DNA of 64,000 nucleotides from an uncultured Gammaproteobacteria bacterium (lineage in GTDB: Bacteria > Patescibacteriota > Microgenomatia > CAZETR01 > Amesbacteraceae), in assembly GCA_964502885.1 (NCBI GenBank), contig CAZCXU010000001.1:17994-81993 (forward strand), read 5' to 3'. Below the pieces are notes generated by a model. It was not told the DNA's origin and did no database searches. It worked only from the letters and a program-made list of their open reading frames with translations. The translations under genes were made by a program, and so were the position numbers. This document shows positions 6,303 to 55,069 of this stretch, piece by piece (within the stretch, counting starts at the first letter, position 1; the number at the start of each line of letters is the position of its first letter).

Positions 6303-6305
6303 GAG

Positions 6306-7352: not shown

Positions 7353-7381
7353 AATCTTATATTAGCAAACCGGAGCTATTG

Positions 7382-39818: not shown

Positions 39819-39861
39819 GTGTGATATTATATGGCGGTTATATTGCAAATAATAGAAGGTT

Positions 39862-40098
39862 ATGCCGATATTACGAAACGCCATCCGCAAGCTGAGATCA
39901 GATAAGCGCAGATCAGCGGTCAACCAGAAAGTAAGAAGAAAAGCCAAGGAGACTGTTTCTTCGATGAGAAAAAAACCGACAGTAAAAACATTGGAATCCC
40001 TGTTTTCAGCTTTAGACAAAGCGGTTAAAGGTAGAGTCATTCACAAAAATAAGGCTGCAAGACTGAAGTCCCGACTTTCCAAGTTGATGAAGAAATAA
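39862..40098 (+). CDS. rpsT: 30S ribosomal protein S20
   Basis: 78 aa. MPILRNAIRKLRSDKRRSAVNQKVRRKAKETVSS...AARLKSRLSKLMKK is a typical S20. AGAAGG lies just upstream of the ATG. Confidence 0.9.
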   Translation: MPILRNAIRKLRSDKRRSAVNQKVRRKAKETVSSMRKKPTVKTLESLFSALDKAVKGRVIHKNKAARLKSRLSKLMKK

Positions 40099-40119: not shown

Positions 40120-40647
40120 ATGCCTGCCCACTCCAGAGTTAATCTATTGCCTCCCTCGGAGTTTGAACTGAGCTTTTGGGGTAGGTTTTTAAGATGGGCA
40201 GTAACTACCGGCAGATATATCATTGTGCTAGCTGAATTGTTGGTAATACTAGCGTTTTTGTCCAGATTCAAGCTGGATGAAGACTTAAGAAATATCAATG
40301 AGCAAATAAACGGGCAGGTAAATTTTCTTGAACGCACATACAGGCAGGAATCAGAGTTTCGACAGCTCCAAAATAAAATTGCTTTAACTAAAAAATATCT
40401 GAACCTGCGCCCCTCGCCCTATGAAAGCCTGGATTACCTTGACAAGAGGCTGCCCGATGAAGTGGTGATAAGAACATGGAATATTAATATGGGGGAGTTC
40501 TCCTTTTCTGCCGAAACACAGAATGAGAAGGCCATGGGTAAAATAATGGCTACGATGTCTGGAGATAAAAAATGGAAAAGCATTGACGTGACGCAACTAT
40601 ACGGTGAAAAAGTCTCAGGAATTAAATTTTCAATTACAGCCAAGTAA
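40120..40647 (+). CDS. PilN-like type IV pilus assembly protein
   Basis: 175 aa. The N-terminal RVNLLPPSEFE is the INLLP PilM-binding motif of PilN. A single TM segment follows, then a coiled-coil/ferredoxin-like periplasmic part. Confidence 0.55.
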   Translation: MPAHSRVNLLPPSEFELSFWGRFLRWAVTTGRYIIVLAELLVILAFLSRFKLDEDLRNINEQINGQVNFLERTYRQESEFRQLQNKIALTKKYLNLRPSPYESLDYLDKRLPDEVVIRTWNINMGEFSFSAETQNEKAMGKIMATMSGDKKWKSIDVTQLYGEKVSGIKFSITAK

Positions 40648-40652
40648 GTCTT

Positions 40653-41306
40653 ATGGCACTTGATTATAAAAGCAGTTTAAGCAGATACCGGAGGTATTTA
40701 CAGATGGTATCAAACAAACCACTGTGGACAGCCAGTCTGTGGGTAATTTTCTCTTTGGTACTGCTTATTGTGCTGGTGATATGGGCACTGCGTCCAACAT
40801 TAGTAACTATATCAGGATTGATGGGCAAGATAGAGAGTCAGAGAAACATCAGCAAACAACTAGAAGATAAAATCGCAACAGTGCAACAAGCGTTTGCAGA
40901 AATGGACTCAGTGGCTACGTCAATGCCGCTTTTAGAAGCAGCCGTCCCCGCTGAGGCTCAGTGGAATCAATTGGCCGGAGATCTGGAAAAAATTGCAACA
41001 GACAGCAGCTTGGCCCTCATAGGTATTACCATAGCAGAGATAGCAAATGATGTGAGTGAATTGAAGATTGACCCAGCGATGTCTGCTGCGTCCAGAGCAC
41101 AAATGCTACCTGCAGGAATTATTCCCGTTAGTTTTATTTTTTCAGCATCAGGGAATTATGCTGATGTAAAAAACGCAGTGCGGCAAATTGAATCTTTGGC
41201 ACGAAAGCCTCTGCTGCGTTCGGTTTCTATTACTCCAAACAAGGAAGGTAATCTGGATTTAACGATAATAGGTGAAGCAATATTTATTAAACCAAACGAG
41301 CCATGA
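40653..41306 (+). CDS. PilO-like type IV pilus assembly protein
   Basis: 217 aa. Short cytoplasmic N-terminus, one TM segment, a coiled coil and a C-terminal domain. It immediately follows the PilN-like gene. Confidence 0.45.
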   Translation: MALDYKSSLSRYRRYLQMVSNKPLWTASLWVIFSLVLLIVLVIWALRPTLVTISGLMGKIESQRNISKQLEDKIATVQQAFAEMDSVATSMPLLEAAVPAEAQWNQLAGDLEKIATDSSLALIGITIAEIANDVSELKIDPAMSAASRAQMLPAGIIPVSFIFSASGNYADVKNAVRQIESLARKPLLRSVSITPNKEGNLDLTIIGEAIFIKPNEP

Positions 41307-41521
41307 AAAAAAGAGGATTAGACAAGGATCTTGTGCTACTATTAATTACGACCTTGATTATGTTGTGTACCTGGGTAGGGCTTGAGGTCTATCGCTCGTA
41401 CGCACATAGCCCCGTAGAGCCCGAGGTGGAGAAACATCTAAAAATGCTTGATCCCACTTTGGATAAAACGGTGTTTTCTTTGTTATCAGAAGAGGAGAAG
41501 AACTCTGATGAGAAACCGTGA
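41303..41521 (+). CDS. Small single-TM protein, hypothetical
   Basis: 72 aa. TM helix LVLLLITTLIMLCTWVGL. Translationally coupled to the PilO-like gene. Its 3-prime end overlaps the next gene. Confidence 0.35.
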   Translation: MKKRGLDKDLVLLLITTLIMLCTWVGLEVYRSYAHSPVEPEVEKHLKMLDPTLDKTVFSLLSEEEKNSDEKP

Positions 41522-42983
41522 GATAAAAATTCCCACACTATTTGGACTGTTGCTGGCAATTGGCGGCCTGGCGAGTGGGATAGTGATGGTACAGAGTCAG
41601 CTGAGACAAAGAGCTGAGGCTGCATCGGCACTTGCACCTAACTCCGTTGTCATTTCAAATGTAACTGAGAATAGTTTTTCAGTGTCATGGACTACCGACA
41701 GGGCTGTAAATGGAAGAGTGGTGTTTTCAAAAAAGGGAGAGAGTGTGTCGAATACAATTGCAGATGATCGCGATCGAGCAAACGGATCGATTGAAACGTA
41801 CTTTACCCACTTTGTAACGGTTGATAATTTGGAGCCACAAACAGAGTATGAGTTTCAGATTAACTCGGGGGGGGAGTTTTTTGGAGTCACAAAAGACGTA
41901 CCGTATCAGATAGCCACTGCAAAGAAGATAGATAGTAAGCCAGATGCAGATGTGGCTTATGGTGAGATAAAGACAGCAACCGGGGAACCGGCGGTTGGAG
42001 CGCTAGTTTATGTTGAAGCTCCCGGAGGAATTGTCCAGTCTACTATCGTTACCAAACAAAGCGGATCTTTTGTAATCCCCTTGTCCACCGTGAGAAAAGC
42101 CGACTTGTCAGGATATCTAGATTATGACCGCTCAAACACTTTGATCACAATCCGAGTTGATAATGGGGCTTTGGGAAAAACCACAGCAACTCTATATACA
42201 TCAGATGATAGCCCTGTCCCTGAATTGGTTCTGGGAAATACATACGATTTTGCTTCCGAGACAGGGAACCGCCAAGAGACAAAATCGTCTGGCATGAACT
42301 ACTCAGATACCCAAACTGACACCCAGACTGAATCAGAATCCCAATCCATTTCAGTGCCTGTTACTGGCCTACAGCTTACTTCCCCCATGGATGGTGAGGG
42401 GGTTAATGCGAATATGCCCGTTATTATCGGGAAAGCGCCGGCAGGAACCGAAATAACTATTGAGGTCCACTCTGAAAATCAAATCAAAACAACTGTGGCC
42501 GCTGATGAAAATGGCACATTTTCATACAATGTAAGTACCCCACTTGAGCCCGGGGAACACACCATTACTATTTCGGCGGTGGTCGGAGGAGTGTTACAAA
42601 GAGTTACAAGAACTTTTACTGTCTATGCTGAGGGGGAAAGTTATTTGCCCGCTTATTCGGCGACTCCTTCAGCGACTTTGGCTCCCTCCATCTTTCCTTC
42701 CCCAACCATTACCAATACTCCACGGCCTACGGCAACCCCACGACCAACGGCAACACCAAGACCAACTAATACACCAAGACCCACAACAACCCCAAAGCCG
42801 GAAATAACTGTTACACCCACCGTGATCCTGCAACCGTCCCCCACTATTGAACCGATAATTTCTCAAGCCCCCGATAATTTGCCGGAGTCCGGCACTCTTG
42901 ACCACTCACTATTATTGATACTATTGGGAGTAGGATTGATACTTTCCGGCGTTTGGTGGCACAAGACTACGACTTTGCGGTAA
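41508..42983 (+). CDS. Secreted surface protein with FN3-like and CarboxypepD_reg-like domains, a Thr/Pro-rich linker and a C-terminal LPESG sorting signal
   Basis: Start at ATG 41508, with a GGAG SD 10 nt upstream (MRNREIKIPTLFGLLLAIGGLASGIVMV signal anchor). FN3-like region (SVSWTTDRAVNGRVVF...LEPQTEYEF). PT repeats TPRPTA TPRPTA TPRPTN TPRPTT TPKP. The C-terminus reads NLPESG followed by a 17-aa hydrophobic stretch and HKTTTLR. Confidence 0.7.
   Translation: MRNREIKIPTLFGLLLAIGGLASGIVMVQSQLRQRAEAASALAPNSVVISNVTENSFSVSWTTDRAVNGRVVFSKKGESVSNTIADDRDRANGSIETYFTHFVTVDNLEPQTEYEFQINSGGEFFGVTKDVPYQIATAKKIDSKPDADVAYGEIKTATGEPAVGALVYVEAPGGIVQSTIVTKQSGSFVIPLSTVRKADLSGYLDYDRSNTLITIRVDNGALGKTTATLYTSDDSPVPELVLGNTYDFASETGNRQETKSSGMNYSDTQTDTQTESESQSISVPVTGLQLTSPMDGEGVNANMPVIIGKAPAGTEITIEVHSENQIKTTVAADENGTFSYNVSTPLEPGEHTITISAVVGGVLQRVTRTFTVYAEGESYLPAYSATPSATLAPSIFPSPTITNTPRPTATPRPTATPRPTNTPRPTTTPKPEITVTPTVILQPSPTIEPIISQAPDNLPESGTLDHSLLLILLGVGLILSGVWWHKTTTLR
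42716..42799 (+). repeat. Imperfect 18-nt tandem repeat of about 4.7 copies, encoding (TPRPTx)n inside the surface protein
   Basis: ACTCCACGGCCTACGGCA / ACCCCACGACCAACGGCA / ACACCAAGACCAACTAAT / ACACCAAGACCCACAACA / ACCCCAAAGCCG. Confidence 0.6.
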
Positions 42984-43010
42984 AATTTGATTGTGAAGGA
43001 TATTGGGAAA

Positions 43011-43583
43011 ATGGCACCAATTAAGATCGGGTTGGATTTCGATGGGGTTGTGGCGTACAACCCACTTAGAGCGACCAGAGCTGTGGTTTCGTTTTTTAAA
43101 AAAAATGTTCTAAAAAAAAGAAAATTAAGTTTTTTTGTACCTAAAAACAAGGTACAAACATGGTTATGGATTATGCTGCATGAAAGCAGCCTGTTCCCTT
43201 CGGCCGGAAAGGGTTTACTTAGACAAATGTCAGGGAATCCGAGGTATGAATTTTATCTGATTACCGGCAGGTATGACTGCCTTGGCTTCCAAGTCAGAAA
43301 ATGGTTGAACAAGTTTGACATGGATGGAGTATTCAAGGAGATCTTTGTAAACGAAGAGAAAGAGCAGCCGCATTTGTTCAAATCGCGGATGATTGAGCAG
43401 CTGAATCTAGATGTATACGTTGAAGACAACTGGGACATAGTCAACTTTCTCAAAGACAAATTCGGGAAGAAAATTTATTGGGTATGCAACTTACTGGATA
43501 GACATGTGCATTACGAAAAAAAATTTCCGAGTTTAAAAGAAGCACTGGAAGACTGCCTGAGCCTAGAACCTAATGAGCCATGA
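43011..43583 (+). CDS. HAD-superfamily hydrolase, 5-prime(3-prime)-deoxyribonucleotidase-like
   Basis: KIGLDFDGVV is the HAD motif I DxDGV. About 190 aa. Start placed at ATG 43011, which has GAAGGA upstream. The ORF-track TTG at 42987 is possible. Confidence 0.5.
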   Translation: MAPIKIGLDFDGVVAYNPLRATRAVVSFFKKNVLKKRKLSFFVPKNKVQTWLWIMLHESSLFPSAGKGLLRQMSGNPRYEFYLITGRYDCLGFQVRKWLNKFDMDGVFKEIFVNEEKEQPHLFKSRMIEQLNLDVYVEDNWDIVNFLKDKFGKKIYWVCNLLDRHVHYEKKFPSLKEALEDCLSLEPNEP

Positions 43584-44692
43584 AGGTGTTGTTTAGTTTG
43601 AGTTATTATTTTCCATATATTTCCGGGCTGAGTGATTATGTCAAAAGATTAGCGGAGAGCATGTGTGGCACAGACATTTTGCCGGAGATAATTTGCACTA
43701 AACATCTTTCTTATCTCGCAGACAGAGAAATAATAAACGGTGTTTCTGTAAACAGATTAAATAAGATCGGAAAAATGGGAAAATGGATAGTACCCCTTTT
43801 GAACCCCTTAAGGATTTTCCGAATATTTCAAAATACCGATAAGGTTGTCATCAATCTTCCCCAACCAGAAGCGATAATTTATAGCATACTTGCAAAACTT
43901 TTGGGTAAAAAAATAATTGCTATTTATCATTGTGATTATGTTTTTGGATCTGATAATTTATCTTCAATATTAAACTTTTGTTTAAGATCAGTTAATTCAA
44001 TATGTCTAAATCTTGCGGATTCGGTGGTTGTTAACTCTTTTGACTATGCTTACAACTCCAGTCTGTTGAAAAATTACTTAAAGAAAGTACAGGAAATATT
44101 CCCCGTGATAGGTTTGGAGTCAGGCAAAAAAATTAATAAACGTTCTTGCTCTCCAAAAATGAGAATTGGATATTTGGGAAGAATTTCTCGTGAAAAAGGC
44201 ATACATATCTTACTGCGGGCAATAAGTTCATCGGGTAATGCTGGCAAATTTTCATTGATAATGGCTGGACCGCGAGATACCATAGGAGAGGAAAGCTACT
44301 TAAGAGAGATTAGCCAGTTAATCACTGATACGAATATTGATGTTAAGAATATGGGCTTCCTCCCCGATCAGGCAAAAAGAGATTTCTTTAACAATATTGA
44401 CGTGTTGGTAATTCCAGCAACAAATTCCAGCGAATCATTTGGAATAGTTCAAGTTGAGGCGATGCAGCACGGGATACCGGTATTGGCTAGTGACTTACCA
44501 GGAGTCAGACAGGTTATAGCTGAGACGGCAGCAGGACTGCTTGTAAAAGCGGGAGACCATTGCGACTGGGCTGAAAAGTTGGAGATGGCTTTAAGCTCAA
44601 TTCAAAAGTATCGCAAGAATACACATAAGGTGTTTAAGAAGTTTAATGGGCTGATAGAATTCAAAAAGTGGAAGACTTTGTTGAATTCTTGA
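43580..44692 (+). CDS. Glycosyltransferase family 4 (GT-B fold)
   Basis: 370 aa. ISREKGIHILLRA...ESFGIVQVEAMQHGIPVLASDLPG is the GT4 EX7E region. Confidence 0.8.
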   Translation: MKVLFSLSYYFPYISGLSDYVKRLAESMCGTDILPEIICTKHLSYLADREIINGVSVNRLNKIGKMGKWIVPLLNPLRIFRIFQNTDKVVINLPQPEAIIYSILAKLLGKKIIAIYHCDYVFGSDNLSSILNFCLRSVNSICLNLADSVVVNSFDYAYNSSLLKNYLKKVQEIFPVIGLESGKKINKRSCSPKMRIGYLGRISREKGIHILLRAISSSGNAGKFSLIMAGPRDTIGEESYLREISQLITDTNIDVKNMGFLPDQAKRDFFNNIDVLVIPATNSSESFGIVQVEAMQHGIPVLASDLPGVRQVIAETAAGLLVKAGDHCDWAEKLEMALSSIQKYRKNTHKVFKKFNGLIEFKKWKTLLNS

Positions 44693-46355
44693 AAATACTG
44701 ACACGGGGATGGTCATACACAGTATATGACTCATCGGCATAGTCATCTACTAAGCTTATGCCAATGGGACAATCTGATATGTTTTCCGCAATTCTGCCAT
44801 AATGAAGAGCCGGCGGTACAATACAGTAATTTATGAATGGAATGGGAAGATTGGGACGGGAAGTAAAAGAACGGACGTGAACAAATGGAGAATTGCCTAA
44901 AAACAGCTTAGAGTAAAAAAGACTTGATTGAGGGTAAAGCTTGGGAACTGTTGAAATGGAGCCATAAAGCCGGTTGCTTGATAGTATGAGATAGTCCAAC
45001 GAGGCTAGTTTTTTATCTAAATTTTGCCACTTTTCGGGACTATCAGGTTCATAAAAAGGCAATTCAATAACTTTAAAACGTCCGTCATTGATTAGCGGCA
45101 GACAGTCGTCCCAATACTCACAACTCAAAGTTGATCCTGATGGGATGTTCTCATAAATCCAGGAGCTGGCTTGAACCCGAGTGTGTGGAACAGAATAAAT
45201 AGACAAAAACATAACTCCAGGCAAAACCATAATTACTGAGGCCGCAACAGATAAACCCAATCGTTTTTTTGTAAACAAGGGGACAAGAAATGGGCCGGCG
45301 ATAATTGCAGCCAGAGGAAGAATTGGATAAAAATAACGCAACGGCCTAGCAAATTGAATATCCTGAAACACAAACAAAATTATGACCATTATTGCTAAGA
45401 TGCGAGGTAAAGAATCTTTACCCACAAGGAAGCGGGCGAGCGAGAAAAGGATAATTACTGAAAGAAACGGACCTACGCCGACAAAGAACAAATTGGGGAG
45501 AGAGTAAGTCAATGGTTTTGTTTCAAACCACTGAACGGACGGGGGAAACATTACTTCTTTTTTTTCTAAAGACTTAAGAGTGTTCAGATTTGCAATTATT
45601 TTCGGATTGGGATGTATTAAATTGATGAAGTAATATGGTGCAGCTAGGCGAAAAGTGATTAAGCTCGATAATCCAAATAGAAATAAATTAATCACCACAG
45701 TTTTCCACCCCACATCCCGCTTTTTAATAAGTAACAAAAGGACGAAAAAAGGGGTGAATGCAATGGCTGAAACTTTGGAGGCAAGTGCGAGGGCGAAAGA
45801 CGCTCCTCCCACTACAGACAACCATCTTTGAGAAGTGTTTTGAGAAAGACGCAGGAGGAGATAGAGTGCAAGCAACAAAAAGGACACCAGAAAAGTATCT
45901 ACTGCAAAAAAGTGCGACAACTGGATGGGAATAACCAATGACGCATATACAAATGCCGACAACATACCACTTTTCCAGCTGGAGAATATAAATCTTGCAA
46001 CAAGAAAGACCAAAATGACGATAACGGTATCCAGTACCGCTGAGATACTTCGACCTACCAGCGGTAGGGAAAAATATGAGTCCATCCCAAGAACTGAAGC
46101 GAGCGATTTTGTCAAAATAACTGGGTACGTACCATAGACATAGAAATCGTGTCCCGCATTGTGAGGATTGCTTTTAGATCCGGACGTGGACAGGTAATCC
46201 GATAAGGAAGATGGAAGATTTATCGACTGACTGACCATGACCAAAAAACGTTCATCTGGATGAAGATGTTGCCCCTGGTCCCAGTTCAATCCCCAAAAAC
46301 GACTAATGACAACGAAAAGCAGCAATAGTGCCCAAGATAACACTTTCATCCTCAT
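44661..46355 (-). CDS. GT-C membrane glycosyltransferase, PMT/ArnT-like (GT39/GT83 family)
   Basis: 564 aa, polytopic. The first extracytoplasmic loop carries HPDERFL, the DE motif of PMT/ArnT enzymes. Translationally coupled to the upstream membrane gene by a 4-nt overlap. Confidence 0.7.
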   Translation of the reverse strand: MRMKVLSWALLLLFVVISRFWGLNWDQGQHLHPDERFLVMVSQSINLPSSLSDYLSTSGSKSNPHNAGHDFYVYGTYPVILTKSLASVLGMDSYFSLPLVGRSISAVLDTVIVILVFLVARFIFSSWKSGMLSAFVYASLVIPIQLSHFFAVDTFLVSFLLLALYLLLRLSQNTSQRWLSVVGGASFALALASKVSAIAFTPFFVLLLLIKKRDVGWKTVVINLFLFGLSSLITFRLAAPYYFINLIHPNPKIIANLNTLKSLEKKEVMFPPSVQWFETKPLTYSLPNLFFVGVGPFLSVIILFSLARFLVGKDSLPRILAIMVIILFVFQDIQFARPLRYFYPILPLAAIIAGPFLVPLFTKKRLGLSVAASVIMVLPGVMFLSIYSVPHTRVQASSWIYENIPSGSTLSCEYWDDCLPLINDGRFKVIELPFYEPDSPEKWQNLDKKLASLDYLILSSNRLYGSISTVPKLYPQSSLFYSKLFLGNSPFVHVRSFTSRPNLPIPFINYCIVPPALHYGRIAENISDCPIGISLVDDYADESYTVYDHPRVSIFKNSTKSSTF

Positions 46356-47965
46356 AGACAGTTGCGGGAGACTGAGTAAATTTTCTGATTCCCTAACGGA
46401 GAGATGTAATCCGCAATAAACTCATCATTCCAAAGGGGCCAATTTACAGGAAGAAAGTCTTCAGGTTGAGTATTCAGCTCGACATAGTCAATTGATCGTG
46501 TGATCAAGCGGTTGCAGGCATCATGTTTGGATGTTGAGGAATAAATTGCTGCTGTATCATTTTCCCTATCAGTCTGATCATATCCGTAAGACCACGTGAA
46601 GTAAGGATAACCGTTATATATTTTCCTTCCGGCCAAAGAAGCCGGATGGTAAAACCAAGTACTGTTTAAGACGACAGAGTCAGCGGCAGTCTTGAGGAGA
46701 AAAAAATTTGCAACAGGATCGCGATTGTAATCGGGGATGTGAAGACGAATATCATTTTTAATCGGAAAATAATCTACAACACCGCCAGAGATCAAGGCGA
46801 CAAATATGGTAGTGGCTAGAATCTTGTATCTTGTGTCCCTATGCAAAAATTTAACAATCAAGTTGGCTGAAAAAACTCCTGCAATAGTTAAGAAGAAGTT
46901 AAGAAGTTTGTGGTTGTTTATAATATCCGGGGACAACTGAAATGTATAAGCCAACAAAAAAATCGTAAGAGCCGGAAGAATAATCAATCTTGAGCATTTG
47001 GGAGCAAAATAAAGACCAACTGGCAAAAGAACAAAATGCAAACCATAGTTGTAAATCGCGTACTTAGCCAACGAGAATATAGTTATCGGCGGTGGTGTCA
47101 AAAAACCAAAGTTAAGGGAGACTGACGAAGACACGTTAACGGTTAATAGATATAGAATTAACCAAGGGATAGCTCCCAACAGGGATACAAACAAAAACAA
47201 ACGCTCCGGACGCAGAATGAGAGCCCACAAATAAAAGACAGCGCCAATTATGAAAGCGGCCTGATTGAGCAGTAATAAACTTCCAAGCAGAAAGCCGGAT
47301 ATCAATTTGCTGCGAGTGTTTGGGATATATAGCAAATAAACAAGGATAATTGTGGTGGCGAATGCCAATCCCAAATGCCTCTGGTTGGTAAAAATGTTAA
47401 GATTCCAAAAGGCAGAAACTTCTCCTCCATCCCAAGGACCAAATGAGACAAATTTTGAACTGTGAATTAACTGATCGAGATATCCAGATAAAGATGAAGC
47501 GCTCTGAATAAATATGGGTAAAGTAAGAGAGGAATTAAAAAAAATAAACACCATAGCCACGATCCCTACAAGAAATGACCGAAAAAGACGAGACGCAAAA
47601 ATTCCCAAACCCAAAGCGAAAGCACATAACCCCAATGCGCTTTGAACATTAAGGGCAATATCAATCCTCAACCCTAGTCGCTCAAGCACCCCAACAAAAA
47701 GATAAAAAAGATAGTGGTACCTGATTGGCTCTCCTGGAAAAAGTGGATACTGGGGCGGCCAGTTGACGGCAGCAGAAAATGAACGAATTAGGGGTATGTG
47801 ACTACCAAAGTCACTGTAAGCTTTTGAGGCAATTAGCAGATCTCCGTCATCCGAATAGGTAAAAGTATGAAACATTAACCAAAAACAAAAAATAAATACT
47901 GCCAGGATGGCAAGTGGCCACAATATATACCTACTGTTATGTGTAAGCTTTTTCAACATCAACAT
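46352..47965 (-). CDS. Polytopic membrane protein, putative GT-C-type glycosyltransferase of unknown family
   Basis: 537 aa. At least 12 TM segments in the N-terminal two-thirds and a soluble C-terminal domain. It is the first gene of a 2-gene operon with the GT39-like gene. Confidence 0.45.
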   Translation of the reverse strand: MLMLKKLTHNSRYILWPLAILAVFIFCFWLMFHTFTYSDDGDLLIASKAYSDFGSHIPLIRSFSAAVNWPPQYPLFPGEPIRYHYLFYLFVGVLERLGLRIDIALNVQSALGLCAFALGLGIFASRLFRSFLVGIVAMVFIFFNSSLTLPIFIQSASSLSGYLDQLIHSSKFVSFGPWDGGEVSAFWNLNIFTNQRHLGLAFATTIILVYLLYIPNTRSKLISGFLLGSLLLLNQAAFIIGAVFYLWALILRPERLFLFVSLLGAIPWLILYLLTVNVSSSVSLNFGFLTPPPITIFSLAKYAIYNYGLHFVLLPVGLYFAPKCSRLIILPALTIFLLAYTFQLSPDIINNHKLLNFFLTIAGVFSANLIVKFLHRDTRYKILATTIFVALISGGVVDYFPIKNDIRLHIPDYNRDPVANFFLLKTAADSVVLNSTWFYHPASLAGRKIYNGYPYFTWSYGYDQTDRENDTAAIYSSTSKHDACNRLITRSIDYVELNTQPEDFLPVNWPLWNDEFIADYISPLGNQKIYSVSRNCL

Positions 47966-48040
47966 ATTCTAACCCGGGAATGGCAACTAATGAACTATTT
48001 ATGGTCATATCAAAATAGTATGACTTGATATCTCACTCAA

Positions 48041-48073
48041 ATATCGGACATTTTGTCTTCTGTTCGCTATAAT
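48041..48073 (+). promoter_or_regulatory. Promoter module upstream of the YYY gene, homologous (about 27 of 32 positions) to the tandem module upstream of the FemAB pair
   Basis: ATCGGACATTTTGTCTTCTGTTCGCTATAATT compared with ATCTGACATTTAGTTTTGTGCTCGCTATAATT. The -35-like GGACA is followed by a 17-nt spacer and TATAAT at 48068-73. TATAAT is 6 nt before GTG 48080. Confidence 0.45.
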
Positions 48074-48079
48074 TAAACG

Positions 48080-50179
48080 GTGGAATACGGCGAATTGTTT
48101 AAGTGGTGGGCAACAGTGTTTATTCTGGGGTGGGCGGCTTGGCCCTTGGCCAGCAAATTGTTTGAGAGCTTTCCAGGACGTGGGTATTTACTGGCCAAGG
48201 GTATGGGTTTAATACTAGTAAGCTTCGCCGTCTGGGTACTCGCCAGCCTGAAAATTGCAGAATTTGGAGTATCTTCAGTGTGGTTTTTTTGTCTTTTAAT
48301 GGCAGTTTTGGCATGGACACGAATGAAAAATCCCCTAACCAAGAATTGGCGTGAGGTCATGTGGTTGGAGATGATTTTTGCGATCGTATTTGTAGGGTGG
48401 TCCTGGATAAAAGCTCACGAACCGAGCATTAATGGGCTGGAAAAATTTATGGATTATGGTTTTGCCATGGCGATTAATAACTCTACACACTTTCCACCTC
48501 CGGATATCTGGTTCTCCGGACAACCGATTAACTACTATTACTTCGGACATCTGATGTTGGCAGTGTTGAGTAAGTTGTCCACCGTGAATTTGGATTATGG
48601 TTTTAACTTGATGCTCGCTACTATCGCCGCCTTTTGTTTTACGATCTCATATTCAATAGGCCATTATCTGGCACGTTCCCTAGATAGGAGCAAACAAACG
48701 CTGTTGGCACTTCTGGTAGCAGTGCTGGTTACTTTTTCGGGAAACCTACATACTATTTATGCATTTACCAAGGGGTACTGGGGTGAGGAAAACCCGCCGG
48801 CGTTTTGGACAATTCTGGCGCCCTTGTCGGATCTAAGTCTATCTTTTGGGAATTACTGGTATCCAAATGCGACGAGGTTTATACCGTTTACAATCCATGA
48901 GTTCCCCAGTTATTCATTTGTGGTATCCGATATCCATGGCCATGTACTATCTATACCAGTAGCACTGCTGCTGATAGCATTGTTTTTAAAAATTTATCAG
49001 CAGAAGGAAAGACGTTCAGGTATAGATATTGCGGTATATGCATTTGGATGTGGAATTGCGTTTATGACAAACGCCCTGGATGGATTGATATACATATGCC
49101 TACTGGGATTTACAATAGCTGTCCAAGAATTTGAAATTTGGAGACAGACAAAAAAAGTTAATTACCCGGCACTGATCAAAATTGGAGTAGTGGGGACGGT
49201 AATGTTTTTTTTAACAACAGGATTATTTCTTGCAAACTTTGAATCGTTTGTCTCTGGGGTGGCAGTCAATTGTCCACCTGCGGCGTGGGTGGGCAAAAAA
49301 GTCGGCCCGCTCATATTTGAAACGGCAGATAAATGTCAAAAGTCCCCCATTTGGATGATGCTTATTCTTTGGGGATTTTTTGTATATAACTTTATCGGCT
49401 TGTACTGGCTTATAGACGAGAAAGAGCAATTCAGAAAGATTGCGATTATAAGTTTTGTGTTTTCAGGCTTGTTAATTCTATTCCCTGAATTTTTTTACTT
49501 CAAAGATATTTATCCACAACACTTCCGCAGTAACACAATGTTCAAACTTGGATATCAAGCTTTTATGCTCATGTCTATCTGGTCCGGATGGGTGATTGTA
49601 AAAATCTATCAGGTGAAACTTCGAACCTGGAAGCACAAGATATTTTTGATCGGAACTGTTCCCCTACTGGTATTGGTGCTTATTTATCCATATTTTTCGG
49701 TTAAATCATACTTTAATTCATTAAATGAAAATAAAGGCTTGTCGGGAACCTCCTGGTTACAACAAAAGTACCCAGAAAACTGGGCAGTCATTAGATGGCT
49801 ACGGCAGACGATAACCGATCCCCACACGGTGGTTTTGGAAGCACAAGGCGATAGTTATCAGGATCCGGTATCGGGAAAACCATATAACCAAATTTCCACC
49901 TTTACAGGACTGCCTACCGTTGCTGGATGGTTTGTACACGAGTGGCTATGGAGGGGCTATGAATCAATCGCTCTCAGGGCCGCTGATGTGAGAACCATTT
50001 ACGATTCCCCCGATATTGAGACTACTAGAACGTTAATAAAAAAATACGAGATCAAATACATAGTTGTTGGGGAAATGGAAAGAGAAAAATATCCGACGCT
50101 AAAACAGGAAAAGTTTGAAAAATTAGGAGGAAGAGTGGTTTATTCAGCGGGCAATACAAGCATCTACAAAATTGACTAA
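48080..50179 (+). CDS. YYY-domain (Chlor_Arch_YYY/DUF2298) polytopic membrane protein, GT-C/oligosaccharyltransferase-like
   Basis: 699 aa. More than 12 TM segments. Signature GQPINYYYFGHLM. Large C-terminal soluble domain. The apparent start is GTG 48080. Confidence 0.65.
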   Translation: MEYGELFKWWATVFILGWAAWPLASKLFESFPGRGYLLAKGMGLILVSFAVWVLASLKIAEFGVSSVWFFCLLMAVLAWTRMKNPLTKNWREVMWLEMIFAIVFVGWSWIKAHEPSINGLEKFMDYGFAMAINNSTHFPPPDIWFSGQPINYYYFGHLMLAVLSKLSTVNLDYGFNLMLATIAAFCFTISYSIGHYLARSLDRSKQTLLALLVAVLVTFSGNLHTIYAFTKGYWGEENPPAFWTILAPLSDLSLSFGNYWYPNATRFIPFTIHEFPSYSFVVSDIHGHVLSIPVALLLIALFLKIYQQKERRSGIDIAVYAFGCGIAFMTNALDGLIYICLLGFTIAVQEFEIWRQTKKVNYPALIKIGVVGTVMFFLTTGLFLANFESFVSGVAVNCPPAAWVGKKVGPLIFETADKCQKSPIWMMLILWGFFVYNFIGLYWLIDEKEQFRKIAIISFVFSGLLILFPEFFYFKDIYPQHFRSNTMFKLGYQAFMLMSIWSGWVIVKIYQVKLRTWKHKIFLIGTVPLLVLVLIYPYFSVKSYFNSLNENKGLSGTSWLQQKYPENWAVIRWLRQTITDPHTVVLEAQGDSYQDPVSGKPYNQISTFTGLPTVAGWFVHEWLWRGYESIALRAADVRTIYDSPDIETTRTLIKKYEIKYIVVGEMEREKYPTLKQEKFEKLGGRVVYSAGNTSIYKID

Positions 50180-51231
50180 GGTTTCCCCAAACTGGTGCTC
50201 ACGAAGTTAAAAATTTCAGTGAATTTTGAGTCTTTTGGAATGAGCACCCACTGATTCTGATATTTTGCCGAAAGAGGAGGATTGATCAAAAGCCCAGAAT
50301 CAATTAGCGAAATCTGACGAACGGGAGCACTTCGAAGTTTCATGGCCGCCTGAAAAAGTGTGGAATAGTAAGGGCTCTCAATGTCAGAGGAAACACTATC
50401 GGCAGCAAGAGCCACTAAACTTTTGTATATGGAGGTATTTTTGAGATTATTAAGCGACAGCAGTTTGTCGGCAAAACCCCTAAGAACTTTGGTCTGACGC
50501 TTTGAACGGGCAAAGTCGGTCCCCTCTTCCACGTCCTCTGAATGCCGGGAGCGAACAAACTTAAGAGCCATCTCTCCATCCAGATGGGCGTCCCCAGCCT
50601 CAAAGGTGATACTTTCATAACGACAGGAGTATTTAATATCACCCCCACAAGTGTCGTTTTCTCTACCAGGGATAGGATACAGATTGTCAGTAAAAGTCTT
50701 ATCTATGGTTATATCTACGCCGCCAATAATATCTATGGCTTTAGAAAACGTGGAGAAGTCTATGTTGAGAGCGAAATGAACCGGTTGATTTATTACCTCA
50801 GTGACTGCAGCTTTTGCCATAAGGAGTCCTCCAGCAGTTGCTGCCTTTTCATATCCAAAGAAATAGGCATGATTTATCTTTGCTTTAAGTGAGTTTACCC
50901 AGAGGTCGCGAGGAATTGGAATAAGAGCTATATCTGGGGAATTTTGATTTACAGAAATAAAAATCATAGTGTCCGAGAGATTTGATCCGTCATGGCCTTC
51001 GCCACCAGAACCAAGAATCAAGAAATTAGTACGACCACCCGACTGAGGAAGTGGGCGACCGGTTACCATTTCCCAAGTCAAATGTCGACCTGAGGTACGC
51101 TCAAAAAGAAAGTAACCACCGATTAGAACCGAGGCGGTAAGTCCTAATATGAGGATCCTTGCCAGCCAAACATGGGACAGCAATTGGCGTTTGAACCGAT
51201 TGTAAAAAGAACCAATTCTGCTAATCTGCAT
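50176..51231 (-). CDS. LytR-CpsA-Psr (LCP) family glycopolymer-to-peptidoglycan ligase
   Basis: Start at ATG 51231 (MQISRIG...); the ORF-track TTG at 51273 is less likely. N-terminal TM segment. LCP core TNFLILGSGGEGHDGSNLSDTMIFISV...IPRDLWV. Confidence 0.8.
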   Translation of the reverse strand: MQISRIGSFYNRFKRQLLSHVWLARILILGLTASVLIGGYFLFERTSGRHLTWEMVTGRPLPQSGGRTNFLILGSGGEGHDGSNLSDTMIFISVNQNSPDIALIPIPRDLWVNSLKAKINHAYFFGYEKAATAGGLLMAKAAVTEVINQPVHFALNIDFSTFSKAIDIIGGVDITIDKTFTDNLYPIPGRENDTCGGDIKYSCRYESITFEAGDAHLDGEMALKFVRSRHSEDVEEGTDFARSKRQTKVLRGFADKLLSLNNLKNTSIYKSLVALAADSVSSDIESPYYSTLFQAAMKLRSAPVRQISLIDSGLLINPPLSAKYQNQWVLIPKDSKFTEIFNFVSTSLGKP

Positions 51232-51250
51232 ATATGTATTTTTAAGGAGT

Positions 51251-53113
51251 ATGGAGATTTTAACCGAACTCAATCCAGTTCAACAAGAAGCGGTAAGTTT
51301 TGATACCAATACCCCGCTGGCGATTTTGGCCGGAGCGGGCAGCGGAAAAACTAGAATCCTTACACATCGAGTGGCATATTTTGTTAAGGAACTGGGGATA
51401 GACAGACAAAACATATTGCTACTGACTTTTACAAACAAAGCTGCAGGAGAAATGTTGTACCGGGTTTCGAAACTGACCGGGGATGCTGCCAGATCGGGCA
51501 TAGCGGGGGGGACTTTTCATAGCTTTGGCGTTAAAGTGCTGAGAGAGTTTGGTGGAGTTGCGGGAATTCGGGCAAATTTTTCTATATTCGATGAGTCTGA
51601 CCAGTTGGATACTATTAAAAGAGCGATGGAGTCTGGTGGAGTTGACCCTAAAACAGTCAAGCCATCAAGTGTGGCTGGGGCTATTTCGGAAGCAAAGAAT
51701 AACCTTATCTCACCCAATGACTATGCTTCTTTTGCGAGAGGGAGTTTTTCACAAGGAGTGGCAAAAGTATATCTTGTTTACGAACAAATGCTTCGCAGAT
51801 ACAATGCATTTGATTTTGATGATTTACTTGTCCGATCCGTACAACTCATCAAAACCTATCCACAAGTGAAACAGGCATTGCAGGAAAGATACACACATAT
51901 ATTGATTGATGAGTACCAAGATACGAATAAGGCCCAATATGAACTTACAAAGATGCTCGCCGAACCGGGGCACCTAACCGTAGTGGGAGATGCGTCACAA
52001 GCCATTTATTCATGGAGGGGAGCAGATTACAAAAATTTGCTGTATCTCAAACAGGATTTTCCGAACTTAAAAGTTATCCGACTGGAGCAAAATTATCGCT
52101 CTACACAAAACCTACTTGACGCGGCAAATGCCGTCATAGCGAAAAATACCTCTCATCCCATACTGGAATTGTGGACGGAAAATCCGACTGGGGAAAAAAT
52201 TAAAATAACTGAATACCCTTCTGAATACGAAGAAGCACGAGCCATAGCCGACGAAATCAATGTCCTTTCCCAGATGAAAAAGACTTCACTGCAGGATGTG
52301 GCGGTTTTGTATAGAACAAATGCGCAATCTCGGGTATTAGAGGAGGCACTGCTCCAAGCAGGCATTCCATATCACCTGGTGGGGGGTGTGAGATTTTATG
52401 AGAGAAAAGAAATAAAAGACGTATTGGCTTATGCAAAAATATTGGTAAACCCAAGCGATGAAGTATCCAGAAAACGAGCTGGGAAACTGGGCAAAGCTCG
52501 GTTGGCACGGCTAGAAGAGAAGAAAATTGATGTCACGCGATTTACCACTCTGGAAGTTTTATCTCAAATATTTAAGTTGACCGGGTATCTGGAAACATAT
52601 GACAGCAACAGCGAGGAGGACGCGGTGAGACTTGAAAATATTGACGAGCTTAAGAGCGTAGCTTTGCTGTATCCCAAGATCGATGAGTTCCTGCAGCAAA
52701 TTACTTTGACAGAAAAGGAGGCTAAGAAAAAAATGGGCAGATCAAGGAATGAAATGGGGGCTGTCACCATGATGACTTTACATGCTTCTAAGGGGCTTGA
52801 ATTTGATGTGGTTTTTCTGGTGGGAATGGAGGAAGGATTGTTTCCTCACAGCAGAGCATTAAACGACCCGGAACAGATGGAGGAAGAGAGAAGATTGTGT
52901 TATGTAGGGATGACCAGAACACGCAAAAAACTTTATATCACCTATGCCAGAAACAGGCTTATTTTTGGACAAAGATCGCCGGGGATCGTGTCCAGATTTG
53001 TGGCAGATATTCCAGAAAAAGTAATTGATAATTTCCAGGTACTTCTTACGGCAAAAAAAGTTGATCAAAGCTGGGGATTTGATGAAAACGGAGAGTGGCG
53101 GTGGCAACCTTGA
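51251..53113 (+). CDS. UvrD/PcrA-family DNA helicase, compact
   Basis: 620 aa. LNPVQQEAVS...LAGAGSGKTRIL (motif I), DEYQDTN (II), and the remaining helicase motifs, ending in the 2B/C-terminal region. Confidence 0.9.
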   Translation: MEILTELNPVQQEAVSFDTNTPLAILAGAGSGKTRILTHRVAYFVKELGIDRQNILLLTFTNKAAGEMLYRVSKLTGDAARSGIAGGTFHSFGVKVLREFGGVAGIRANFSIFDESDQLDTIKRAMESGGVDPKTVKPSSVAGAISEAKNNLISPNDYASFARGSFSQGVAKVYLVYEQMLRRYNAFDFDDLLVRSVQLIKTYPQVKQALQERYTHILIDEYQDTNKAQYELTKMLAEPGHLTVVGDASQAIYSWRGADYKNLLYLKQDFPNLKVIRLEQNYRSTQNLLDAANAVIAKNTSHPILELWTENPTGEKIKITEYPSEYEEARAIADEINVLSQMKKTSLQDVAVLYRTNAQSRVLEEALLQAGIPYHLVGGVRFYERKEIKDVLAYAKILVNPSDEVSRKRAGKLGKARLARLEEKKIDVTRFTTLEVLSQIFKLTGYLETYDSNSEEDAVRLENIDELKSVALLYPKIDEFLQQITLTEKEAKKKMGRSRNEMGAVTMMTLHASKGLEFDVVFLVGMEEGLFPHSRALNDPEQMEEERRLCYVGMTRTRKKLYITYARNRLIFGQRSPGIVSRFVADIPEKVIDNFQVLLTAKKVDQSWGFDENGEWRWQP

Positions 53114-53136
53114 GTTGTGTGGTCCCGACAAAACTT

Positions 53137-53260
53137 AATGACTATATATCTTGCACAAAATCTGACATTTAGTTTTGTGCTCGCTATAAAGTCATGACGA
53201 GACAGAAAATGACTATATATCTTGCACAAAATCTGACATTTAGTTTTGTGCTCGCTATAA
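53137..53260 (+). repeat. Perfect 53-bp direct repeat of 2 copies with a 71-bp period. Each copy contains an 8-bp inverted repeat and a promoter-like module.
   Basis: Copy 1 at 53137-53189 and copy 2 at 53208-53260 are both AATGACTATATATCTTGCACAAAATCTGACATTTAGTTTTGTGCTCGCTATAA. Inside each, GCACAAAA-N12-TTTTGTGC. Confidence 0.85.
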
Positions 53261-53261
53261 T
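53233..53261 (+). promoter_or_regulatory. Promoter for the FemAB-like pair (cTGACA-N17-TATAAT), 6 nt upstream of ATG 53268. A duplicate lies 71 bp upstream with TATAAA.
   Basis: CTGACA at 53233-38, a 17-nt spacer, and TATAAT at 53256-61. The -35 lies in the loop of the GCACAAAA/TTTTGTGC inverted repeat, which suggests an operator. The upstream copy is at 53162-53190. Confidence 0.5.
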
Positions 53262-53267
53262 TCAGGA

Positions 53268-54248
53268 ATGGAGAGCTGGGTTGAGGCAGATTTTGACCAT
53301 AAGAATGAGTGGAATGCACTAGCAGGACATCCGTTACAGTCCTGGGAATGGGGAGAGTTTAGAGGAAAAAGACAAAAAGTTAGTCGGCTGGCTCTATCAG
53401 ATGGAGGTAACTACAAAAGAGTTATCAATGTGATCTGGACCCGGCTGGGAAGGCTGCCATGGCAAATCGGATATGCACCCATGATAAAGCTGCCAAATAA
53501 ACAAGATCTATCTGGTCTTATCGCTGCCGCAAAAGCCAACCGAGCAATATTTGTGAGAATCGAACCTCTTCCGGGCCAGAATGGACTGGAGCTACAAGAA
53601 TTTGAACAGATAAAGGGAGAGCTAAAAACCGGCAGATCATTGTTTAAAAAGAAAACTCGGGTTGTAAACCTAACTTTAAATGAAGAGGATCTACTTAAAC
53701 AAATGCATCCTAAAGGCAGATACAATATTCGGGTAGGATTAAAGCACGGGGTGAAAGTCAGTCAGGAAACAGATTTGGACAGTTTCAATAAGTATTTGCA
53801 GTTAATGTTTTCCGGAACTGCAAAACGGCAAAAAATTTTTATGCATAATTATACGTACCATCAGCAGATGTGGGATAGTTTGAGCGGATCAGGGATAGCC
53901 AAACTATTTCTTGCAAGAGTCGGCAAGGACGCGGTGGCGGCGGCAATTCTATATTGCTTTAAAGAAACCGCTTATTATGCTTATGGGGCGTCTGAGCTTG
54001 AACATAAAGAGGCAATGGCACCTACCGGGTTGTTGTGGGAAATGATTAGGTGGGCCAAGAGCAAAGGATTCAAATATTTTGATATGTGGGGAAGCGAAAG
54101 CGGAAAAGGTTTCTCCAGATTTAAGGAGCAATTTGGAGGCAATGAGATAGAGTTGCCTGGAAGTTTTGATTTACCAACCAGCCCGCTATATCGATTATTT
54201 AGAATTGCAGAAGAACTCAGGTGGAAAATAATTCACAACTGGAAGTAG
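53268..54248 (+). CDS. FemAB-family peptidoglycan interpeptide-bridge aminoacyltransferase (FemX-like)
   Basis: 326 aa. N-terminal Q-S-W-E-W-G-E-F pattern. LFLARVGKDAVAAAILYCFKETAYYAYGAS...GLLWEMIRWAKSKGFKYFDMWG is the FemAB GNAT-like acceptor region. Confidence 0.7.
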   Translation: MESWVEADFDHKNEWNALAGHPLQSWEWGEFRGKRQKVSRLALSDGGNYKRVINVIWTRLGRLPWQIGYAPMIKLPNKQDLSGLIAAAKANRAIFVRIEPLPGQNGLELQEFEQIKGELKTGRSLFKKKTRVVNLTLNEEDLLKQMHPKGRYNIRVGLKHGVKVSQETDLDSFNKYLQLMFSGTAKRQKIFMHNYTYHQQMWDSLSGSGIAKLFLARVGKDAVAAAILYCFKETAYYAYGASELEHKEAMAPTGLLWEMIRWAKSKGFKYFDMWGSESGKGFSRFKEQFGGNEIELPGSFDLPTSPLYRLFRIAEELRWKIIHNWK

Positions 54249-55069
54249 TCGAAGACTTAAGACAAACAAAAGAATACGGAGAATATATGGAGTCTTTGGG
54301 GTGGAAAGTCGCTGAATTAGGCAGGTGTGGCAAAATATTTCTTCGGCCATTGGGGCCCTTAAAACTCGCTAAGTTTCAGAGGTTTACAAAAATTCCGGAG
54401 ATTAACCTTTTGGATGAGCTAATGAATAAAGAGCGGGTGGTCATGTGCAAGTTAGAGCCAAGTGAAAAAATACAAGAAACCGAGTTGAACAGTTTTACTG
54501 CGGCTGGATTTAAAAAAGACAAATGGCCACTGCTTGCCAGCAAGACTTTAAGAGTTGACCTACGACCCGCGACTGAGGTTATTTTTTCAAAATTTAAAAA
54601 GGATGCCAGGTACTGCATACGTAAGGTGCAGGAGGATAGGTACAAGATAAGTGACGATGACACTGAGCTGTTTTATTTTATATGGAAAAAAAGTTCGAAA
54701 CGAAAAAATCTATGGATCCCAAGTAAAAACGAATATGATAATTTTGTCAGAGTGTGGGGGAAAAAAGTTCTTTGTATAACGATAGGCGAAATGGCGGGGG
54801 TGGTAATTATTGTCCACAAACAGACGGCTTTTTATTACTATGCGGGGGCAACAAAAGAAGGAACGGACAAGAACCTCCCCTATTTAGCGGTGTGGTCTGG
54901 AATGCAAGAAGCCAAGAAACGAGGCGCAAAGACGTGGGATTTTGAGGGCATCTTTGATACCCGATGGCCGAACAAGAGATGGCTGGGTTTTTCTCATTTC
55001 AAGAAAAGTTTCGGGGGGCAGGATGTGGAATATCCCGGTTCATTTGAAAAATGGCGATGGCCATTTTAG
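54221..55069 (+). CDS. Second, shorter FemAB-family paralog
   Basis: 282 aa. YGEYMESLGWKVAELG N-terminal pattern. VVIIVHKQTAFYYYAGATKE...LAVWSGMQEAKKRGAKTWDFEGI. Overlaps the upstream paralog by 28 nt. An alternative start is ATG 54287. Confidence 0.6.
   Translation: MENNSQLEVVEDLRQTKEYGEYMESLGWKVAELGRCGKIFLRPLGPLKLAKFQRFTKIPEINLLDELMNKERVVMCKLEPSEKIQETELNSFTAAGFKKDKWPLLASKTLRVDLRPATEVIFSKFKKDARYCIRKVQEDRYKISDDDTELFYFIWKKSSKRKNLWIPSKNEYDNFVRVWGKKVLCITIGEMAGVVIIVHKQTAFYYYAGATKEGTDKNLPYLAVWSGMQEAKKRGAKTWDFEGIFDTRWPNKRWLGFSHFKKSFGGQDVEYPGSFEKWRWPF

Follow-up and report, generated by a model that had tools for sequence, protein, structure and literature searches.

What holds a run of cell-envelope genes together in the middle of a chromosome that is otherwise given over to housekeeping? 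The question is raised by positions 40120-55069 of a stretch of 64,000 nucleotides from contig CAZCXU010000001.1 (Amesbacteraceae), called here the window. A preliminary description of this block, made from the letters of the window, had taken it for an island and its genes for a single assembly line, either for surface glycoproteins, among them a large surface protein ending in an LPESG sorting signal, or for cell-wall decoration. The genes it named are all there, even if it passed over a UvrD/PcrA helicase (51251-53113) and missed an open reading frame (ORF) of 72 codons (41303-41521). Its two generalisations fared worse. With slightly better than even confidence, we read the block as a conserved chromosomal neighbourhood of Microgenomates that consists of three separable units: an operon that couples two type IV pilus-like genes to the surface protein, here named Surf; a glycosylation cassette that varies from lineage to lineage; and a backbone of cell-wall and housekeeping genes.

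The evidence comes from a comparison of related loci. Eighteen genome loci were collected via Unk537, an unnamed membrane protein of the cassette, six via distant Surf homologues and 80 metagenome loci via a PilN profile; all three sets, about 100 loci (handles L001 and upwards), were analysed with family hidden Markov models (HMMs). The first unit and its left neighbour in the window are the following.

38145-40040, minus strand: murJ, lipid II flippase family (Pfam MurJ, 252.6 bits).
40120-40647, plus strand: pilN-like gene for a bitopic protein with an N-terminal VNLLP motif (Pfam PilN, E=0.014, and profile match).
40653-41306, plus strand: pilO-like gene for a bitopic protein (Pfam PilO below cut-off, and profile match).
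41303-41521, plus strand: orf72, a small bitopic membrane protein of 72 residues (direct reading of the sequence).
41508-42983, plus strand: surf, 491 residues (Pfam fn3, Pur_ac_phosph_N and Big_6; AlphaFold2 model).
42720-42795, plus strand: tandem repeat within surf, encoding the (TPRPTx)n part of its stalk (Tandem Repeats Finder, period 18 bp, 2.6-3.5 copies).
42879-42983, plus strand: C-terminal sorting signal of Surf, made up of LPESG (residues 458-462), a hydrophobic segment and an HKTTTLR tail (alignment and motif).

The order pilN, pilO, small ORF, surf proved invariant. It is kept in all 12 surf-holding loci of the first two sets and in all of the 32 metagenome loci with enough downstream DNA; it persists down to 25% Surf identity, with frequent start/stop overlaps. 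MurJ, divergent from pilN, is a conserved left neighbour and precedes pilN in 35 of 40 metagenome loci as well as in most other fetched loci that hold pilN.

The interval between surf and the LCP gene behaves differently. It is a variable slot between conserved flanks, and in the window it is filled by five genes.

43011-43583, plus strand: HAD-superfamily phosphatase-like protein of 190 residues (invariant motifs).
43580-44692, plus strand: GT4 glycosyltransferase, cytoplasmic, GT-B fold (Pfam Glycos_transf_1, 93.5 bits).
44661-46355, minus strand: PMT_2/ArnT-like GT-C transferase of 564 residues (PF13231, 45.6 bits; PF02366, 25.0 bits).
46352-47965, minus strand: Unk537, a predicted GT-C transferase (AlphaFold2, Foldseek and profile-profile comparison).
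48080-50179, plus strand: DUF2298/Chlor_Arch_YYY GT-C-like membrane protein of 699 residues (PF10060 and TIGR03662).

To the right of the slot follow the backbone genes.

50176-51273, minus strand: LCP (LytR-CpsA-Psr), family of ligases joining glycopolymers to peptidoglycan, with an N-terminal transmembrane (TM) segment (PF03816, 95.5 bits; TIGR00350, 81.7 bits against a cut-off of 62.3).
51251-53113, plus strand: UvrD/PcrA-type helicase of 620 residues (PF00580, 273.7 bits; PF13361, 235.6 bits).
53268-54248, plus strand: first FemAB, family of aminoacyl-tRNA-dependent peptidyltransferases (PF02388, 98.9 bits).
54221-55069, plus strand: second FemAB-family protein (PF02388, 59.2 bits).

The succession HAD-GT4-PMT2-Unk537-DUF2298 is found in the slot of the window, L001, L002 and L029, all Amesbacteria-like. 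In L003, L004 and L007 the slot holds FAD-oxidase-Unk537-DUF2298, in L020, L023 and L024 FAD-oxidase-PMT_2-PMT_2-(HAD)-DUF2298. The slot of L021, L022 and L025 has no glycosyltransferase cassette at all, and L025 nevertheless keeps LCP-TIM-UvrD-FemAB-FemAB. A second arrangement occurs in L008, L010-L013 and L015, where the order is FemAB-UvrD-TIM-PMT (with PMT_4TMC)-small GT2-FAD-oxidase-Unk537-HAD-GT4-PMT2-DUF2298 and where pilNO, surf and LCP are all missing within 10 kb. Since the quartet is invariant and the cassette is not, the constant partner of Surf is PilN/PilO rather than the GT-C enzymes. The single assembly line is thus not supported: surf always travels with pilN-pilO-orf72, the cassette varies or is absent, LCP persists without any GT-C gene in L025, and UvrD and, in relatives, TIM are interleaved. 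None of the results named in the preliminary description as refuting it was obtained, however.

As single sequences both pilus-like proteins stay below the Pfam cut-offs, PilN with 15.9 bits against 22.8 for PF05137 and PilO with 19.9 bits against 22 for PF04350. Family profiles do better. That of PilN, built from six sequences, matches Myxococcus xanthus PilN (3jc8_Na) with E=2.2e-6; that of PilO matches PilO of the same structure (3jc8_Oa) at 1.4e-10 and 2rjz at 6.7e-6. Precomputed Pfam matches of the homologues in L021, L023 and L025 agree. On these profiles the window proteins qualify as members of PilN (PF05137) and PilO (PF04350), as had been proposed, and the VNLLP sequence is what we take to be the PilM-binding motif of PilN. 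The operon is not, however, a PilMNO(PQ) operon, for which co-location with pilM and other type IV pilus genes would be expected. No pilM-sized gene lies next to pilN (the search went by size; a PilM model was not run); the upstream gene, where identified, is murJ, rpsT, LepA or AddA, the last in L081, L088, L095 and L073, four loci inspected ORF by ORF. PilM, PilN, PilO, PilB and PilC families have been reported in bacteria of the candidate phyla radiation (CPR), whereas PilQ has not (PMC6744442).

The small protein between PilO and Surf is tightly fitted into the operon: the ATG of orf72 overlaps the pilO stop codon (ATGA), and its end overlaps the start of surf by 14 nt. Comparable overlaps, of 4 nt, recur in L020, L022 and L024. 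Homologues of 65-156 residues stand at the equivalent position in L003, L004 and L020-L025, with W24 and L61 invariant in the alignment; Pfam has no match for orf72, and an HMM of the family finds a member in every quartet locus. The gene overlaps, together with the three best-placed promoter-like sites, suggest five transcription units: pilN to GT4 on the plus strand, Unk537 to PMT2 on the minus strand, DUF2298 (plus), LCP (minus), and UvrD-FemAB-FemAB (plus). These three sites, the best found, all lie in intergenic gaps, the top one at 53233-53261 with 11 of 12 matches; scans of the region for promoters and terminators did not exceed the shuffled expectation.

Surf itself begins at ATG 41508, not at TTG 41448. 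It opens with an IPT-x-x-GLL membrane helix, continues through three beta-sandwich domains and a stalk, and ends with LPESG, a TM segment and a basic tail. The AlphaFold2 model (predicted local distance difference test score, pLDDT, 81.6) places the domains at residues 45-136, 149-247 and 289-372, between a long N-terminal helix and about 90 disordered Thr/Pro-rich residues, the stalk, which lead to a C-terminal helix. Two of the Pfam domains, fn3 and Pur_ac_phosph_N, are above cut-off and Big_6 is barely so; CarboxypepD_reg and Big_13 are below. Domains of FN3 type and Ig type and the (TPRPTx)n linker are thus borne out. The family counts 82 homologues. They have in common an N-terminal (K/R)IPT(I/L)xGLL membrane helix and a Pro/Thr/Ser-rich stalk, and about 70 of the 82 end in [LIVM]Px[S/T/A]G, a TM segment and, mostly, basic residues; P459 is near-invariant and G462 invariant in the alignment. 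The L003 variant VPDSG brought up the idea of an exosortase, which was dropped, as no PEP-CTERM or VPDSG-CTERM model matches any of five C-terminal tails compared. A second Surf-like gene stands in tandem in L007, L061, L069, L081, L088, L094 and L097, and in L007 a 404-residue secreted protein, rich in Pro and Cys, is encoded downstream of surf (6782-7996, plus strand).

In the cassette, the two soluble proteins come first. The start of GT4 overlaps the stop of HAD. GT4 is above the Pfam cut-off and reaches no equivalog cut-off in NCBIfam. HAD has no match in Pfam, NCBIfam or the sequences of the Protein Data Bank (PDB), where apparent profile matches to I-MsoI and SecA proved spurious. In seven family members, however, motifs I-IV are all invariant, namely D17xD19GV, T93, K132 and E146-D147-N148..D150 (EDNxD), and some JGI records label homologues as 'uncharacterized HAD superfamily protein'. 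On motifs and this naming, the protein of 43011-43583 can be placed in the HAD superfamily; the public record P0206 begins at the same ATG 43011 and is 100% identical. In L010 (11572-13251) and L013 (11566-13266) HAD and GT4 are fused into one protein of about 560 residues, which puts them in one pathway; this might, for example, run over a glycosyl-phosphate intermediate that is then dephosphorylated.

The three polytopic proteins are GT-C-like transferases, as had been supposed for all of them including the then unassigned Unk537, and neither HMMs nor fold point to an unrelated transporter family for any. The one at 44661-46355 fits PMT_2 (PF13231) best and PF02366 marginally, with 25.0 bits against 22.7. 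Its first loop carries the HPDERF (DE) motif, which is invariant. Its description as PMT_2/ArnT-like holds, whereas the label GT39 has to go: with the Pmt equivalog NF058602 the protein scores 24.2 bits where the cut-off is 800, and a PMT_4TMC domain (PF16192) is absent. The DUF2298 protein is a full member of its family, with 302.9 bits for PF10060 (cut-off 27.8) and 460.3 bits for TIGR03662 (cut-off 300.25); EKFMD and NYY(Y/T)FGH are invariant family-wide.

Unk537 is the least familiar of the three. It has at least 846 homologues, none of them named and apparently all confined to Microgenomates, and it matches nothing in Pfam or NCBIfam, PF10060 and TIGR03662 included. (Its start in the public record differs from that of the listed ORF.) An AlphaFold2 model computed from an alignment of 35 sequences reached a pLDDT of 92.7 and a predicted template-modelling score of 0.92. 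The top 28 Foldseek matches are GT-C enzymes throughout (DPY19, STT3, AglB, PglB, AftA, ArnT, AftD, AftB), and EmbA is also among the structural matches. By this model, Unk537 has the multi-pass membrane module of the GT-C fold and, with the predicted topology, a conserved acidic residue in the first extracytoplasmic loop. S51-D52-F53, directly after the first TM segment, is invariant in the 35 sequences, and D52 aligns with the D of the EKFMD motif of DUF2298; NQRHL, D-x-x-NNHK (in SPDIINNHK) and Y-x-YF-x-(W)SYG(Y) are invariant too. Profile-profile comparison with DUF2298 extends over nearly the full length, from the D motif of the first extracytoplasmic loop into the C-terminal domain (Prob 97.3, E 2.7e-11). 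This profile evidence makes Unk537 a distant paralogue of DUF2298 and places two of the three polytopic proteins in one YYY-type group. The C-terminal globular domain resembles that of oligosaccharyltransferases. A kinship with the PMT_2 family was considered and rejected (hhalign Prob 2.5). The gene of Unk537 overlaps the PMT_2 start by 4 nt, and the two probably form one operon.

Most relatives add a further enzyme. Directly upstream of the Unk537 or the PMT_2 gene they encode an FAD-dependent amine-oxidase-like flavoprotein of about 415-440 residues (among others L003 8725-9972, L004 8647-9951, L007 8543-9847, L008 8698-9987, L020 11371-12654 and L023 10555-13479), which is absent from the window, L001 and L002. 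Its placement suggests that the lipid, or a sugar linked to it, undergoes a redox step. In L023 the flavoprotein and a PMT_2 domain form a single fused protein of 974 residues. This fusion and that of HAD with GT4 speak for coupling inside the cassette. The cassette of the closest genome, L001, is enlarged in another way: a methyltransferase and an extra PMT_2 protein of 502 residues are inserted between PMT2 and GT4, and a 548-residue CrtC-type lipocalin-domain protein (6120-7766, plus strand) between LCP and DUF2298. In the second arrangement (L008 6732-8717; also L010, L011, L013 and L015) a 417-residue PMT + PMT_4TMC protein is followed directly by a GT2 of 242 residues; no homologue of this pair was found in the window.

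The LCP protein and the tandem FemAB pair had been correctly recognised, all of them being above curated HMM cut-offs. None of them reaches the equivalog cut-offs of TagU, LytR or FemX, the first FemAB giving a weak 41.6 bits for FemX against 500. The helicase between LCP and FemAB does not count among the envelope genes and keeps its position in all relatives. Together with an AddA-type helicase-nuclease (UvrD + PD-(D/E)XK; 55071-57974, minus strand) it flanks the FemAB pair. The order LCP-(TIM)-UvrD-FemAB-AddA is kept across Microgenomates, for which a functional reason is not obvious.

How might the three units work? The first would be a translationally coupled operon, divergent from murJ. 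PilN and PilO would serve as bitopic alignment proteins of a type IV pilus machine, the PilM and other genes of which would lie elsewhere in the genome, and orf72 would be a new small bitopic partner. Surf is presumably fixed in the membrane by its N-terminal helix, and its C-terminus is probably joined covalently to a peptidoglycan cross-bridge by a sortase. As synteny and protein anatomy would have it, Surf could thus tie the PilNO platform to the wall, or space it from the wall, in a cell that lacks an outer membrane, PilP and PilQ. The second unit would act outside the cytoplasm. The cytoplasmic HAD and GT4 pair, one PMT_2/ArnT-like GT-C and two YYY-type GT-Cs make up its content in the window. 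GT-C enzymes use polyprenyl-phosphate sugars outside the membrane. Those of the cassette would draw on such sugars at the membrane's outer face and pass them on to an acceptor, for which Thr/Pro-rich stalks of secreted proteins (Surf, for instance), pilins, or a wall or lipid-linked glycan are the candidates. The third unit is the backbone. LCP, the two FemAB proteins and MurJ would serve peptidoglycan and the attachment of wall polymers; UvrD and AddA, and TIM in relatives, would be unrelated to either task.

Several observations weigh against this reading. The link between Surf and PilN/PilO is one of synteny, and co-expression of unrelated envelope genes could explain it. Foldseek finds generic tandem FN3/immunoglobulin matches to Surf and no signature specific for pili. 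The sorting signal, called textbook in the preliminary description, has the tripartite layout and its conservation in its favour; of five C-terminal tails, however, that of the L001 orthologue alone passes TIGR01167 (LPXTG_anchor; 20.8 against a cut-off of 15.9), and the LPESG tail of the window does not match the model. A search for the sortase motif TLxTC among the ORFs of the window and of loci L001-L025 returned nothing relevant, in agreement with the earlier remark that the window holds no sortase. Sortases as such are reportedly near-ubiquitous in Microgenomates (PMC6744442), and a closed genome of this group encodes one (PMC7143001). The cassette of the window, in contrast to those of relatives, encodes no small GT2 that could make polyprenyl-phosphate sugars. 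Finally, the cassette lies directly downstream of surf in 10 of the 13 surf-holding loci of the first two sets, so that Surf and the GT-C enzymes may well have a functional link.

That link is the core of the assembly line in its full form, which we still consider unlikely. According to it, the LPESG protein receives O-linked sugars on its Thr/Pro stalk from the PMT-like and YYY GT-C enzymes, a sortase anchors the product to a cross-bridge built by FemAB, and LCP adds a companion polymer. The cassette does follow surf immediately, with the same orientation, in the window, L001-L004, L007, L020, L023, L024 and many metagenome loci, and the Surf family as a whole has kept its Thr/Pro-rich stalks. 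In distant relatives, moreover, the PMT + PMT_4TMC protein adjoins a small GT2, a pair that we take to resemble the actinobacterial Pmt/Ppm1 pair which O-mannosylates Thr/Pro stalks; and Unk537 has a TM core plus C-terminal domain in common with protein-modifying oligosaccharyltransferases. Yet the stalk protein occurs without an adjacent GT-C gene (L021, L022, L025) and the cassette without surf or LCP within 10 kb (L008, L010-L013, L015), the PMT_2 protein of the window fails the Pmt equivalog and lacks PMT_4TMC, UvrD and TIM interrupt the envelope genes, and LCP and FemAB remain where the cassette is missing.

The second alternative, which appears doubtful to a similar degree, makes the locus one for a wall glycopolymer or lipoglycan: GT4 with HAD would start a lipid-linked glycan in the cytoplasm, the three GT-Cs would extend it outside and LCP would ligate it to peptidoglycan, with Surf and PilNO as unrelated neighbours. 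Mycobacteria follow a similar logic in making arabinogalactan (AftA-D/Emb and Lcp1) and lipomannan (the GT4 enzymes PimA/B and GT-C mannosyltransferases). In the window, L001-L004, L007, L020 and L023, LCP abuts DUF2298 convergently with an overlap of 4 nt; the structures that Unk537 matches include AftA, AftB, AftD and EmbA; and content that varies by lineage between conserved flanks would be typical of surface-polysaccharide loci. Against this, the cassette lacks genes for an initiating phosphoglycosyl transferase, for a Wzx or ABC exporter and for a polymerase, LCP is kept without the cassette in L025, and the cassette occurs without LCP in L008 and L010-L013.

As to the acceptor, the position next to surf in most loci, the oligosaccharyltransferase-like features of Unk537 and the PMT + small GT2 pair of relatives favour a protein stalk; the neighbouring LCP gene and the resemblance to AftA, AftD and Emb favour a wall polymer or lipoglycan. 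Neither the surf nor the LCP link to the cassette is constant across loci.

The three-unit reading can also be taken further, into its most novel form, which we consider unlikely. Here the type IV pilus machine of monoderm Microgenomates would include orf72 and Surf as hitherto unrecognised components, with Surf as a stalk, inserted in the membrane and anchored to the wall by sortase, that couples PilN/PilO to peptidoglycan and replaces PilP/PilQ, and the YYY GT-Cs would be a sister group of oligosaccharyltransferases that glycosylates stalks or pilins.

Least of all do we believe in synteny without any common function, i.e., in envelope and housekeeping genes caught in the frozen order of small, rarely rearranged genomes: the conservation does span unrelated genes (DnaK-GrpE-HrcA-GH39-LepA-MurJ ... 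LCP-TIM-UvrD-FemAB-AddA), but the start/stop overlaps in pilO-orf72-surf, HAD-GT4 and Unk537-PMT2 and the gene fusions argue for real operons and functional coupling inside each module.

Known systems resemble the three units in part. Like PilMNOPQ of the type IVa pili of M. xanthus (PDB 3jc8), the operon has tandem PilN- and PilO-like bitopic genes and keeps an INLLP-type N-terminal motif; unlike it, it has no adjacent pilM, PilP lipoprotein or PilQ secretin, and a 72-residue bitopic protein and a stalk protein with sortase signal follow instead. For Unk537 the oligosaccharyltransferases STT3, AglB and PglB (GT66) are structural matches that include the C-terminal domain. It aligns with DUF2298/Chlor_Arch_YYY, the family of its 699-residue neighbour, over nearly its whole length and yet escapes the Pfam and TIGR models. 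In the literature searched on DUF2298, Chlor_Arch_YYY and GT-C enzymes of Patescibacteria, we found no functional study and no characterised member of the family.

In actinobacteria, protein O-mannosylation is achieved by Pmt (GT39) and Ppm1 (GT2). The window compares with this system in having, next to a secreted Thr/Pro-stalk protein, a GT-C whose loop 1 carries a DE motif, and its relatives in having PMT + PMT_4TMC with a 242-residue GT2; the window protein, however, is PMT_2/ArnT-like without PMT_4TMC, and its cassette has no Ppm1-like GT2. The mycobacterial assembly set for arabinogalactan and lipomannan comprises the GT4 enzymes PimA/B, the GT-C enzymes AftA-D, Emb and Mpt, and Lcp1. The window likewise combines a cytoplasmic GT4, several GT-Cs and an adjacent LCP, but neither a WecA-type initiator nor galactan synthase, decaprenylphosphoryl-arabinose (DPA) pathway or exporter, and the LCP link is inconstant in relatives. 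TfpW, the GT-C pilin D-arabinofuranosyltransferase of group IV pili of Pseudomonas aeruginosa, modifies Ser/Thr (bioRxiv 10.1101/2020.04.19.049825). Its gene lies near type IV pilus genes and thereby offers a precedent for a GT-C in such a setting; the window holds no pilin gene, and the flavoprotein of the relatives' cassette is amine-oxidase-like. The arabinose donor is made by a different, DprE1-type flavoenzyme.

The superfamilies of all parts, CPR pili and CPR sortases were known already. New are the placing of a large family without annotation among the GT-C enzymes, with an oligosaccharyltransferase-like C-terminal domain, the invariant PilN-PilO-orf72-Surf quartet and the variable glycosyltransferase slot; no paper describing any of the three was met in the literature searched. 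Gene lists are nearly all that is known of the envelope of Microgenomates and other CPR bacteria, which are uncultivated. The modelled fold of Unk537 would be a first functional handle on the YYY/DUF2298 group. The constant genetic company, in this lineage, of PilN/PilO, a very small membrane protein and a stalk protein bearing a sortase signal suggests a way in which a pilus platform might be attached to the wall without an outer membrane. A hypervariable glycosyltransferase slot would mark a surface-glycan locus subject to diversifying pressure, and this may be relevant to host and phage recognition in episymbionts.

There remains the question of the island. The nearest genomes are those of Microgenomates, the top match being Candidatus Amesbacteria GW2011_GWB1_47_19. 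The window is gene-dense and leans towards AT, with GC contents of 0.40-0.48. The block, at 0.40-0.43, is unremarkable next to the 0.41-0.48 of the remaining window. Scans of the window for tRNA genes and for Rfam families gave no match, and HMM scans found no integrase or transposase among its proteins. Horizontal acquisition of the block was ruled out by its GC content, the lack of a border tRNA or mobility gene and its synteny in distant relatives: composition, borders and distribution all contradict an island. The flanks and most of the block are syntenic across Microgenomates, and the glycosyltransferase slot is the only variable part. The housekeeping nature of the surroundings was borne out by FtsK, RNase J, PNPase, EF-G, a ribosomal-protein region, DnaK-GrpE-HrcA, LepA, RNase HII, RmuC and TatD on the two sides of the block.

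Some neighbours deserve mention. A GH39 glycoside hydrolase (34970-36322, plus strand) accompanies the pilNO operon in many loci, in the order GH39-LepA-MurJ; a GH39 is reportedly also encoded by the closed Microgenomates genome Ch65 (PMC7143001). At the right edge of the window (62389-63873, plus strand) there is a membrane GT2 of 494 residues (Glyco_trans_2_3, 43 bits), which is not a small donor synthase of the Ppm1/GtrB type and may be a processive polysaccharide synthase. The GC skew is positive in nearly all 2-kb bins of positions 1-64000, whatever the strand of the genes, and the cumulative skew climbs to 3.1; the AT skew is mostly positive as well. For a closed Microgenomates genome, a strong disparity in composition between the strands has been described (PMC7143001).

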